This document shows positions 457 to 35,311 of a DNA stretch of 35,311 bases, piece after piece. A program made the translations under genes and the position numbers. Below the pieces are notes generated by a model that did no database searches, was not told where the DNA came from, and worked only from the letters and a program-made list of their open reading frames with translations. Source of the stretch: a virus (lineage: Duplodnaviria > Caudoviricetes); IMG/VR virus record IMGVR_UViG_3300030332_001635, positions 1 to 35,311 of that record; one strand, written 5' to 3'. Position 1 is the first letter of the stretch; each line of letters begins with the position of its first letter.

Positions 457-744
457 ATGGACCCAGTACAGACGGGAGCTATTGCAGCAATTGTCTCAAT
501 CGTATTGGGAGCATTCAAGCTCGTCGAGGCTATAAGCAAGAAGAAGAATGGTGCAGGGTCAGAGACACAGCTGGCTCTGCTTGGGCAGAGAGTAGAGTCT
601 CTTGAGAAGAATATCGAGGAGACTCATGCGAAGATGGTCGAGCTTTTGAAAGAGTTCTATGTCTTCCGAGAAGAAACTAGATTATGGCGCGTGAGCTATG
701 AGGCAAAGAGCGGGAGACTTCAAGATGAAAAAGACAGGCATTAA
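457..744 (+). CDS. Membrane protein with N-terminal TMD and coiled coil (lysis cassette; holin/antiholin-like)
   Basis: Hydrophobic AIAAIVSIVLGAFKLV followed by KKK and a heptad-rich helix. Lies between tail fibre and holin. Confidence 0.6.
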   Translation: MDPVQTGAIAAIVSIVLGAFKLVEAISKKKNGAGSETQLALLGQRVESLEKNIEETHAKMVELLKEFYVFREETRLWRVSYEAKSGRLQDEKDRH

Positions 745-964
745 GAGTACAGAGTTCTGGATTAGTATTGTCGGTATGCTCGGCGGGGTAATTCTTGCGT
801 CAATGGAAGGCAGCCAATGGACTCAGGTAATAGGAGCTATCCTGGCTGCTGTCTGCGGGGGGAGCTATACAATGGGGCGCAGCCTTGTAAAGTCCAATGA
901 AGCTAAGGCCGGTATTATTGGTGAGGCAATAAAAAAAACATCGAAATTAAAAAAAAGCTCCTAG
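725..964 (+). CDS. Putative holin (two TM segments)
   Basis: MKKTGIKSTEFW N-terminus, two hydrophobic segments and a basic C-terminus, upstream of the endolysin. ATG at 725 preferred over 698. Confidence 0.7.
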   Translation: MKKTGIKSTEFWISIVGMLGGVILASMEGSQWTQVIGAILAAVCGGSYTMGRSLVKSNEAKAGIIGEAIKKTSKLKKSS

Positions 965-1155
965 ATGGCCTCTCGGATAGCGAAAGCATGCTGCGTCTCG
1001 CTGGCAATATCGATAGGGGTGGCTGGCTTGGGAGTGTTGGTCTTGGCTCAAAGCCTACAGAAGACATTGAACTGTTTGTTGAGGGATTCGCGGGTTCCGA
1101 GTGGGGTCAGGAAGTCAACTGGGGAGCAACAGCGGGACTGAAGTTTCGCTGGTAG
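925..1155 (+). CDS. Hidden -1 frame ORF overlapping the holin 3' end; beta-strand-rich tail ending GATAGLKFRW (probable frameshift extension of the holin)
   Basis: Open from 925 to TAG at 1153-1155: ...KKLLDGLSDSESMLRLAGNIDRGGWLGSVGLGSKPTEDIELFVEGFAGSEWGQEVNWGATAGLKFRW*. It fills the otherwise empty 965-1178 gap. A8 tracts lie at 931-938 and 949-956. Confidence 0.6.
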   Translation, partial: GNKKNIEIKKKLLDGLSDSESMLRLAGNIDRGGWLGSVGLGSKPTEDIELFVEGFAGSEWGQEVNWGATAGLKFRW

Positions 1156-10536: not shown

Positions 10537-10734
10537 GCCCCGAGCGGGCTTCCCGCGTCAACAGGGGCAGCCCTAAACAAACAGCAAGGACAAGCACCGA
10601 AGAAGTAACGCAGCGCGAAGCGTTTCCATCGACTTCAAGCGAGTCTTCGAGCGCCCGCGAGCTTGCGAGCGAAAAATTTTTTTTTTGGATTTTAGACGCC
10701 GGTTTGAAGGTACCGGCAAACCTGTTTGATTGGC

Positions 10735-11451: not shown

Positions 11452-11495
11452 CTTTTTTCCTTTGGTTTTGGGAGTCTGCGAACTCCATTTCATCT

Positions 11496-11525
11496 ACTTT
11501 ACCACGATATTCTAAGCTATTGCAA
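11496..11525 (-). promoter_or_regulatory. Sigma70 early promoter
   Basis: TTGCAA-18 bp-TAAAGT with a TG extension and an A/T-rich upstream tract. The -35 box lies inside the inverted repeat AAGCT-N6-AGCTT. Confidence 0.65.
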
Positions 11526-12409
11526 GCTTTATCTTTAAAAACCTTAACTATTCTAACCACTTACCCTTGAATAGCTGCCTTCGACCGCTTCGGTCGTCTT
11601 GTGGCGGAGCCTTGGCCGACACGATAGCGGAGCGGTGGCTGTCTTCATGGGCCGAGCTTCGAGGGTCATTCTCTTTGATCTCGTGTTCACGCTTTTGCTC
11701 TCTTTTTGTTAAAAAGCACACGAAAATCATCTCTTTTGCAGTTAAAGGCGACTGTGTTTTGTGTGGATAGAAGATAGGAAAGCTCAATGATTACAAGGTA
11801 TCGCTCTTTTTCTCTTGTTTTATGGGAGTGTTTTACTGGGGATGTGAGGGCTCCGAAGCACGCTAAATAGCTTATATCATTGAGTATATTTCTACCCTTA
11901 TTCTCACTATGAGATTTCTCTCTTCTCTCCCTGTCTTCGTTTCTCCCTCTCTTCTCTCTACGGCGGACACTCCTTAAACATTCTATGTATTCTCTAATTA
12001 AGAGACGCTATCCTTGTACCCCCCCCTACCCCTCTTCAATTTAATCTTCTGCTAGCGGAACACCCTCCATGAATTTTTTTACGATTTCAACATCAACGCA
12101 GCGCATTAAAGTATATATCCTTAGGTCTTAATTAGTAAGAGACATAGATATAAACACCCCCCCCAGACTACATAGTTAGTAACCGCAGATTAGGGAAGCT
12201 GGTATATTCGCTTCATCCGTACTGTATTGTGTTGAATATCTGGTTAGTGGATATCACCATTGCCACAATGCTTATGTGGTGTGTCCCAGTTACTAGCTAT
12301 GCTTCGTTGGGTCATAAGGAGGCAATGGTTCTGTGTCCGCTTAAAGGGGGGTTAATTGCTAACCCCTAGCGTCTACTCCGTAACCGTCTACCTTTAACTT
12401 AGGGCATAG
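11526..12409. other. Large non-coding divergent control region (probable genome end / packaging-start area)
   Basis: No convincing ORF. Contains a pyrimidine tract (11914-11959), C-runs and hairpins. Lies between the divergent early and late arms, just upstream of the terminase genes. Confidence 0.5.
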
Positions 12410-12438
12410 TTGCATATCATTCAATAGCTCTTTAAAAT
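12410..12438 (+). promoter_or_regulatory. Sigma70-type promoter of the late/packaging operon (leaderless start)
   Basis: TTGCAT-17 bp-TAAAAT. ATG at 12445 lies 7 nt after the -10 box and has no SD. Confidence 0.65.
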
Positions 12439-12444
12439 TAGATT

Positions 12445-12879
12445 ATGGAAGAAGCAAAGAAGAAAGAGAAAGTAACGTCTGGAACAAGTTCTACGCCCAC
12501 GACTCGTGCAGGTAGGGCGTCTAAGTTTGGTCGTTCTACTGTGACTAAGCATGGTGTGGTTAAGAAGGCTCGTTCTGCTGGTTCTTATGGTATTGATGGT
12601 AAGAAGGTGCGGGTTGTTCAGAGTAAGGACAAGCATGCTTTATGGGATGATCTCTTTTCCATAACGGAGAGTCAGATCAAAGCCCTTAAGACGAAGGTGG
12701 AGGATGGGGAAGATCTAGACACCAAGGATATGAGTAAGCTTGATAGCTGTTATGGTGGAATGAAGAAACTGCTAGAGATTGAGGTGGTGCTTAAGTCTGA
12801 TGCTATCTCCTCTCTTTCTACTGATGAACTGAAACGTTTAGCCAAGAAGGCTATCCGGGAAGCGAAAGAAAATGATTAG
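12445..12879 (+). CDS. Putative terminase small subunit
   Basis: First late gene. Basic disordered N-terminus, helical core and C-terminal LSTDELKRLA motif. The call is mainly positional. Confidence 0.5.
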   Translation: MEEAKKKEKVTSGTSSTPTTRAGRASKFGRSTVTKHGVVKKARSAGSYGIDGKKVRVVQSKDKHALWDDLFSITESQIKALKTKVEDGEDLDTKDMSKLDSCYGGMKKLLEIEVVLKSDAISSLSTDELKRLAKKAIREAKEND

Positions 12880-34327: not shown

Positions 34328-35311
34328 ATGGCTGATGCAAAAATTATGACCTTTGGCGAGTTATTCTCTGCCACGACTGATGTCATTCCCGACAACAAAG
34401 CGGCTGCTGTGGAGATCGAAGGTCTCGATGGTAATGACTACATTAAGATTAATACAACCAATAGTTCGGAAGCGGTTCAGCTTGTTAGCGGTGGAACTGG
34501 GCGTGTCTCTATCGGGACGCACGATCCCTACACTAATATTGATGCAGCAGCAGATAACTTAGTTGTCGGTGACGGGACAGGGGACGAAGGGATCACGATT
34601 GTCTGCGGATCAAGCGCTGGTGATTATGGTTCTGTCTATTTTGGGGATCCGAGCTCAGGCACTCAAGGGCAGATCAGATACGAGCAGAACAATGAAGTTA
34701 TGTCGTTCTACACTAATACTGCCGAGCGGATGCGAATCGATCTAGATGGCGATGTCACCATGAACGCCGGTCTAAACGTCGCAAACACGGCAGTGTTGGG
34801 GACCGACGGAGTGGCGATTGGGTCAGGATGCACGGCAGCCGGGGCTAATGCCATTTCGGTAGGGCACAACGCCATAGCAAGCAACACTAAATCATTAGCG
34901 CTAGGAAATGGGGCTAACTCAAGCAGTTCTGGAGCTATAGCAATGGGGCCATCGTGTCAGAGCGCTGCGACCAATTCCGTGGCAATCGGAACGAATAGCG
35001 CCAGAACAGAGGGCGCCTATTCTATGGCTCTGGGTTATTTTAGTCAGACCAAGAGGCCCTTTGAACAGACATTTACTAGCGCGACTTATGGGGTTGATAA
35101 AAAAGCTTCATCGCAAAGAAAGTTTGTTTCAGGGCAATGCCAAACCACTGACGATACAGTCACAACCATGCTGGACGCTGAAAATGCAGGTAGCACGGCA
35201 ATGCTAGTGAACACGACGAATTGCCAGACTACTGATAAATCCAGCACAACGTTTTTTAATGTGAGGGTTGTCTCCACGGTGACCGGTGGGGATGAAGATT
35301 CTGATTTTGAG
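34328..35311 (+). CDS. Tail fibre protein with YadA-head-like 14-aa repeats (runs off the window end)
   Basis: GAGGT RBS, ATG at 34328, no stop before 35311. FYTNTAERMRID fibre motif. Repeats GVAIG/AISVG/SLALG/AIAMG/SVAIG/SMALG. Missing from the ORF track because it has no stop. Confidence 0.85.
   Translation, partial: MADAKIMTFGELFSATTDVIPDNKAAAVEIEGLDGNDYIKINTTNSSEAVQLVSGGTGRVSIGTHDPYTNIDAAADNLVVGDGTGDEGITIVCGSSAGDYGSVYFGDPSSGTQGQIRYEQNNEVMSFYTNTAERMRIDLDGDVTMNAGLNVANTAVLGTDGVAIGSGCTAAGANAISVGHNAIASNTKSLALGNGANSSSSGAIAMGPSCQSAATNSVAIGTNSARTEGAYSMALGYFSQTKRPFEQTFTSATYGVDKKASSQRKFVSGQCQTTDDTVTTMLDAENAGSTAMLVNTTNCQTTDKSSTTFFNVRVVSTVTGGDEDSDFE

Follow-up and report, generated by a model that had tools for sequence, protein, structure and literature searches.

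A small holin-like lysis gene from a marine phage very probably yields a second, longer product through a programmed -1 ribosomal frameshift, and the extension gained in this way is probably an outer-membrane barrel module, as predicted from its sequence and model. The window (the whole 35,311-nt stretch analyzed here) is a 35.3-kb virus record with a CheckV completeness of 93%. Profile searches returned terminase, portal and major head protein matches, and the sequencing runs that contain its DNA are marine metagenomes. A slippery holin-like lysis gene with an added barrel module is likely the property of a marine phage family, and a third small membrane gene is likely encoded in the same DNA. 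On balance, we favor the long product as a lipoprotein-free, barrel-anchored spanin substitute that would act by inner-outer membrane tethering.

The lysis cassette lies on a short stretch of the + strand and has the following features:

103-453, + strand: DUF7936 gene.
457-744, + strand: 95-aa membrane protein that overlaps the holin-like gene; one N-terminal hydrophobic helix, then a basic stretch and a likely coiled coil.
725-964, + strand: 79-aa holin-like protein with two hydrophobic helices and a K-S/T-T/S-E-F ... Y-xxx-R motif; the short, unshifted product.
931-937, + strand: slippery heptamer 1, A_AAA_AAA, in register; retained only in the closest relatives (L036, L040-L042).
949-955, + strand: slippery heptamer 2, A_AAA_AAA, in register; equals the family-wide site a few codons ahead of the stop.
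925-1155, + strand: -1 frame extension with a short linker, four predicted amphipathic beta-strands, a near-invariant Gly at -6 and a terminal Trp (beta-signal-like).
About 982-1014, 1021-1053, 1066-1101 and 1117-1146, + strand: predicted strands of the extension.
965-1141, + strand: nested 58-aa ORF3 in the holin's own frame, with its ATG directly after the holin stop TAG; basic, one hydrophobic segment.
1179-1559, + strand: 126-aa ORF without family matches, between extension and endolysin.
1565-2008, + strand: endolysin, peptidase M15_3 (Pfam PF08291, E 9.9e-16; phrog_894 endolysin, E 4.9e-27).

Elsewhere in the window, a stretch of about 950 nt (11493-12445) contains no ORF of 80 aa, and gene orientation switches there. 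In the relative L001, the 126-aa ORF of 1179-1559 is missing from the corresponding place after the extension.

Slippery sites and overlapping frames

The original prediction placed two in-register A8 runs just before the holin stop, and both are located as claimed. The runs at 931-938 and 949-956 are read as ATA AAA AAA and TTA AAA AAA, each containing A_AAA_AAA in register, and they are the only A runs of at least 8 on the + strand of the window; a T10 run occurs at 10677-10686. The -1 frame is indeed open from 925 to 1155, ending in GLKFRW and a stop, and a shift at either site gives the proposed 143-aa fusion (translated for site 2, by arithmetic for site 1). A one-base homopolymer error in the assembly would have made the locus a single ORF. 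Logan contigs from five studies bridge both tracts without gaps in 7 of 8 runs compared: those of X1, X2, X4 and X5 span the whole stretch, the tracts are also bridged in X6 and X10 and, by a relative, in X8, and X7 misses the site (X1 and X2 represent one sample, possibly the source of the record). The bridging contigs carry A8 with no A9 variant and no indel, so the single-ORF alternative fails and assembly error is rejected, at the resolution of contigs, in which rare variants would be invisible, rather than of raw reads.

The holin-like protein has 310 homologues. We examined 116 loci (the window and 115 that were fetched, duplicates of the same contigs included), of which 6 are cut inside the gene, 11 are weak scorers and 99 score at least 60 bits, a cut-off set after a gap in the scores was visible; the spurious matches L009, L010 and L165 were excluded. 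An in-register X_XXY_YYZ heptamer lies near the stop in all 99 close loci, relative to 5 of 268 other ORFs of these loci with such a heptamer in their last 11 codons. Homologues thus retain both the out-of-frame junction and the slippery site, a point on which the original prediction depended. The extension is complete in 89 of the 99 loci (67 distinct), and the heptamers of the distinct loci are A_AAA_AAG (27), G_GGA_AAG (26), A_AAA_AAA (11) and A_AAA_AAC (3); the first two we take to be the dnaX site and the lambda G-T tail chaperone site, respectively. The wobble base ahead of the site tracks the site, with GTG GGA AAG in 24, GCA AAA AAG in 23 and CTA AAA AAA in 7 of the 67, and site type switches several times on a 40-row tree that has few columns and many open forks. 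One relative, L146, has C_CCA_AAG at this site. The downstream site (949-955) is the more conserved of the two, since a single site near the stop is all that L001 and L013 retain. Despite shifts in the position of the slip site, 94-107 aa always separate the conserved Tyr from the C-terminus.

Beyond the stop, the -1 frame remains open for 63-75 codons in the 67 distinct loci, of which 62 have a final W and 5 a final F; the +1 frame of the same loci closes within 1-29 codons. Substitutions in the -1 frame fall on codon positions in the order third, first, second (1377/896/390), and a purifying pattern in both frames accompanies the conserved layout. A DNA search started from the extension returned 15 loci, 9 by chance and 6 true, and all six true loci have a holin upstream and out of frame as well as a canonical heptamer. 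A separate 55-aa protein from ATG 988 had also been suggested. This start exists in the window clade, yet a start for a product of at least 45 aa is lacking more widely, with no ATG in 29 of the 67 and no ATG, GTG or TTG in 6; the extension is therefore not a separate gene family-wide, and the suggestion is disfavored.

Across 12 loci, folding gave no consistent stimulatory hairpin (z -2.0 to +1.6), nor was an upstream motif shared by eye. The SD-like GGTGAGG (920-926) was rejected as a stimulator since a mere 4 nt separate it from site 1 and relatives do not share it.

The window contains a further open frame that was absent from the original prediction. ORF3 (965-1141, 58 aa) is nested in the extension, and its conservation was assessed in 40 non-redundant loci against an expectation from synonymous recoding. 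The holin frame reopens after its stop as an ORF of at least 35 aa in 40/40 loci (12.1 expected), and 37/40 have a start within 8 codons plus a hydrophobic segment (0.5 expected); the loci are related, so these counts are not independent trials. Likewise, stops in the ORF3 frame number 24 relative to 110 expected across the 40 loci. First-position changes of the -1 frame, which are the wobble changes of ORF3, rise in the overlap (651 vs 726 third-position) relative to the last 15 codons (226 vs 412). ORF3 has a median of 60 aa and a net charge of +7; its hydrophobic segment is genuine, and Met is the only conserved residue of ORF3. In L040 (2241-2246), the ORF3 ATG has become CCG, and a GTG one codon on compensates for the loss by preserving a start.

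The predicted barrel module

The four amphipathic beta-strands of the original prediction were borne out by modeling: AlphaFold2 folds the extension into an amphipathic four-stranded sheet with a pLDDT of 93. Hydrophobic and polar columns alternate across 90 aligned members, Gly occupies position -6 in 89/90, and the terminal residue is W in 68 and F in 21 of the 90. Gly(-6) belongs to the beta-signal consensus. The terminal aromatic residue is the BAM beta-signal of trimeric autotransporter (TAA) anchors, in which each chain gives four strands, as described in PMC5670179.

The proposed likeness to a YadA-type anchor stands at the level of fold and fails at the level of family. Foldseek ranks 1-3 in the PDB are Hia translocator/anchor structures (E 0.008-0.017, TMq 0.63-0.67); the YadA anchor comes in at rank 13 and that of AtaA at rank 17, and no match falls below E 0.001. 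A profile match to the last strands of an autotransporter barrel was recorded at E 0.0012, and in the ESM Atlas the L005 homologue, used as the query in place of the window extension, reaches 0.96 to YadA-anchor clusters with 187 shared features. Conversely, Pfam YadA_anchor (PF03895) matches 0/90 members and 0/5 genomes. An Ala-rich, helix-like stretch precedes strand 1 in most members and is short or absent in the window clade. We consider the extension TAA-anchor-like by prediction and not a member of PF03895. Separately, an open-ended ORF at 34328-35311 carries YadA head repeats (PF05658) and is likely a tail fibre that ends in the missing part of the record; the comparisons made show no relationship between it and the anchor-like extension.

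The VIA comparison is less one-sided. There, the gasdermin B pore (Z 7.3) is level with Hia (Z 7.2), in a range the tool calls common, and other gasdermin/MACPF pores are also among the matches. The Hia alignment covers 63 residues, full-length, at 19% identity; the gasdermin B alignment (rmsd 2.2, 59 aligned) has 7% identity over scattered segments, and only the sheet matches. Inward-facing strand positions are often D/E/R, and such charges would sit badly with a helix-filled 12-strand lumen.

The wider family comprises 76 representatives at 50% identity, 71 of which are calls of 38-131 aa that mostly start inside the extension and have no signal peptide evident by eye; the other 5 are long repeat-like proteins. 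A full in-frame fusion occurs in 0 of the 76, and longer in-frame fusions were likewise absent from weak searches with length floors of 140 aa and 175 aa, the latter above the fusion length. P0121, which joins a partial holin start to out-of-frame text, likely reflects an indel. A GTDB scan gave 11 loci with the extension in 0, cultured phages gave no match for the holin or for P0165, and a locus search for P0145 found nothing. Genomic context for distant extension-like proteins (alignment A6) comes from L112 only. This locus (2001-2545) has a distant holin and a clear barrel extension in the -1 frame without a canonical heptamer, ending CTA AAC CCT TCC TAA, and it groups weakly with lipoprotein-fused holins on the tree, subject to a long-branch warning.

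Cassette, topology and competing explanations

The holin-like gene encodes a small TM protein upstream of, and near, the endolysin. Matches to holin families are weak and confined to few relatives, at E 7.5e-5 to 0.09 (phrog_526 7.5e-5, PF23987 4.3e-4); the window protein itself has no PHROG or Pfam holin match, and its nearest named Atlas cluster scores 0.80. The gene at 457-744 has a similar counterpart upstream in L001-L005, L007 and L008 and no significant family in Pfam and PHROG searches. This 95-aa protein may be the true holin, in which case the 79-aa gene would serve the outer-membrane step. Because a different, 197-aa enzyme-like gene replaces the M15 endolysin downstream of the extension in L002 and L004, the endolysin appears exchangeable while the frameshift module stays. 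In L113 (318-815), the holin-like domain is tandemly duplicated in one 165-aa protein. One 48-kb record (G008:C1) holds two copies of the holin-like gene, at 438-671 and 45760-45969, which could reflect a terminal repeat or assembly overlap.

The original prediction saw no Rz/Rz1 lipoprotein spanin in this genome. We agree: our own lipobox heuristic returned 0 lipoprotein candidates in all six frames of the window, a record that is 93% complete. Eight other extension-bearing records (86-100% complete) have 0-2 candidates each, and 0/9 extension-bearing records have a lipoprotein in the cassette, apart from a Cys inside the holin-like gene itself in two. Among controls without the extension, a lipoprotein is fused to or beside the holin in 4/4 near-complete records (G016-G019) and in none of three less complete ones. 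Within 1.3 kb downstream, a lipoprotein candidate occurs at 0/53 extension loci versus 9/24 relatives without the extension, a contrast that is largely one clade (98/94 support) plus L112 against many, with some controls that may infect hosts without an outer membrane; 15/24 of these relatives likewise have no candidate. About 13% of phages of Gram-negative hosts have no identifiable spanin, according to the main survey (PMC6139136). The spanin-substitute idea of the original prediction gains comparative support (0/53 vs 9/24), and its own caveat of a cytoplasmic tail still stands.

That caveat was an N-in/C-in topology. The model of the holin-like protein (helices 8-26 and 30-77, pLDDT 58) is too weak to judge topology. 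Three K/R follow helix 2 in all 40 extension-bearing sequences, and in L107 (1995-2417), L110 (1995-2426), L123 and L130 the same holin-like domain continues, in frame and immediately past helix 2, into a lipoprotein signal; these two observations place the C-terminus in the cytoplasm. The four relatives carry an internal LAGC or VVGC box and a lipoprotein domain, and a cut by signal peptidase II is likely. With such fusions, the holin-like family is coupled to an envelope-targeted module in two ways. Helix 1 is consistently hydrophobic and the stronger segment in the extension clade, where its median dG on an approximate scale is 0.7 vs 2.4 in others (p 4e-4). Helix 2 is marginal in the extension clade (median 2.8, maximum 5.0), and in the L008 group it even contains a Lys; its dG does not differ from that of relatives without the extension (2.8 vs 2.7, p 0.09), and its Kyte-Doolittle value is lower (0.99 vs 1.36). 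We infer that a fraction of the long chains gets to the periplasm.

Under the favored reading, the programmed -1 shift would yield a 79-aa major and a 143-aa minor product, and ORF3 would be made by coupled re-initiation, both of which we infer strongly. BAM is predicted to take the extension as a substrate, and at least three chains would assemble in the manner of a trimeric-autotransporter anchor. In the weakest step, helix 1 would remain embedded in the inner membrane, whereas the marginal helix 2 and the Ala-rich linker would enter the periplasm through an alternative topology or after holes have opened. We speculate that stalled autotransport, or coiled-coil zipping of a chain tethered to the inner membrane, pulls the membranes together; that this would follow removal of the wall by the M15 endolysin; and that ORF3 might serve as an inner-membrane or cationic partner. 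The long form would thereby connect the two membranes and take over from lipoprotein spanins the task of breaching the outer one. More tentatively, the locus could define a third structural class of spanin, in which about 430 nt encode three products, namely the holin-like protein, its frameshifted fusion to the barrel and the membrane peptide nested within; while still anchored in the inner membrane, the fusion would build a small barrel via host BAM, arrested autotransport would drive inner-outer membrane fusion, and the frameshift rate would fix the holin:spanin ratio.

Several other explanations are each considerably less likely. The best placed is that the outer membrane is broken mainly by cationic ORF3 acting like a disruptin, or that the long form uses its beta-signal to jam BAM, in either case without a tether or fusion. 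ORF3 conservation (37/40 vs 0.5 expected) speaks for it, and so does the resemblance of ORF3 (median 60 aa, net +7) to the 56-aa cationic phiKT gp28 (10.1101/515445); however, the hydrophobic segment of ORF3 is a true one, Met is the only residue conserved in it, and all four strands of the extension are conserved, beyond the needs of a jamming peptide.

An unlikely but comparably placed reading keeps the extension on the cytoplasmic side, where it would insert into the inner membrane as a large, gasdermin-like beta-barrel pore seeded by the holin hairpin, with the frameshift setting lysis timing or hole size. The N-in/C-in evidence is then accommodated without a flip, the top VIA row and the other gasdermin/MACPF pores point the same way, and polar inward faces suit an open lumen. 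The near-invariant Gly(-6) and terminal W/F would have no role in such a pore, however, the full-length Hia match exceeds the scattered gasdermin match in identity (19% vs 7%), and the missing spanin is left unexplained.

A shade less probable again is a miniature trimeric autotransporter, in which helix 1 would act as a signal peptide and be cleaved off, so that the long form shows helix 2 and the linker on the surface for adhesion, exclusion or vesicle/cell-cell fusion rather than lysis. The basic N-region and hydrophobic core, an Ala25 invariant in 9/9 first homologues, the weak helix 2, and the succession of linker-helix, PGxG loop and four strands that mirrors TAA anchors are all consistent with it, but Ala25 is not kept in L072, L080 and L089, the same domain is a stand-alone gene adjoining endolysin or spanin-like genes in relatives, and the product sits in a lysis cassette with no passenger-like domain.

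Finally, the absence of any frameshift (an assembly error, a separate small gene with its own start, or polymerase slippage on A runs only) is highly improbable and already largely refuted: ATG 988 in the window clade, a TAATG overlap in L013 and the capacity of A8 runs to slip in transcription fit it, against contigs without an indel, 29/67 homologues without a usable ATG and 6 without any start, 53/67 with the short in-register runs A_AAA_AAG or G_GGA_AAG, and 0/76 full in-frame fusions.

Relation to known systems

The frameshift itself has familiar counterparts. In dnaX and lambda G-T, the same heptamers stand in register just before a stop and give a short major and a long minor product with a shared N-terminus. 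The present case differs in that the slip site belongs to a lysis gene, that a search for a conserved hairpin or SD stimulator found neither, and that the shifted frame shares its DNA with a third ORF.

The unimolecular spanin T1 gp11 and the two-component lambda Rz/Rz1 (PMC6139136) occupy a similar place in the lysis cassette, and in each case the chain or pair would connect the inner membrane with the outer. Nesting of one gene in a different frame of another is also common to both, ORF3 here and Rz1 in Rz for lambda. The window locus differs from spanins in having no lipobox, a predicted C-terminal beta-barrel anchor and a probable origin as the frameshift product of a holin-like gene; T1 gp11 in particular has an N-terminal lipoprotein anchor and a C-terminal TMD (PMC6139136), unlike the long form. 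The word "barrel" is absent from the main text of that survey.

With the TAA anchors Hia, YadA, AtaA and UpaG (PF03895; PMC5670179), the extension has in common a linker helix, a short loop, four strands per chain and a terminal aromatic residue, and these anchors are its top fold and Atlas matches. It differs in having no Pfam match among 90 members, no passenger, a holin-like hairpin as its N-terminus and bulkier polar inward residues, and its oligomer is a prediction. As it fails both the lipoprotein test and the PF03895 HMM test, we file the locus under neither spanins nor TAA anchors.

ORF3 recalls the phiKT gp28 disruptin (10.1101/515445), itself one alternative to spanins, and LambdaSo Lcc6 (10.1101/2024.01.23.576932), which are small cationic or single-TM lysis factors of 56-65 aa. 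The likeness is one of size and general character, and ORF3 differs in being nested in a barrel-coding frame.

A literature search, mostly at the level of listings and abstracts from non-subscription sources, found no holin frameshift or barrel spanin, and even under the rival readings the architecture is without a published match in the literature searched. A device that depends on a frameshift and a nested ORF is invisible to gene callers. To the systems compared above, the locus contributes a candidate lipoprotein-free route to outer-membrane disruption via a beta-barrel-anchored device, and it would also supply an example of a lysis gene with a frameshift and of a minimal natural BAM substrate that keeps a link to the inner membrane.
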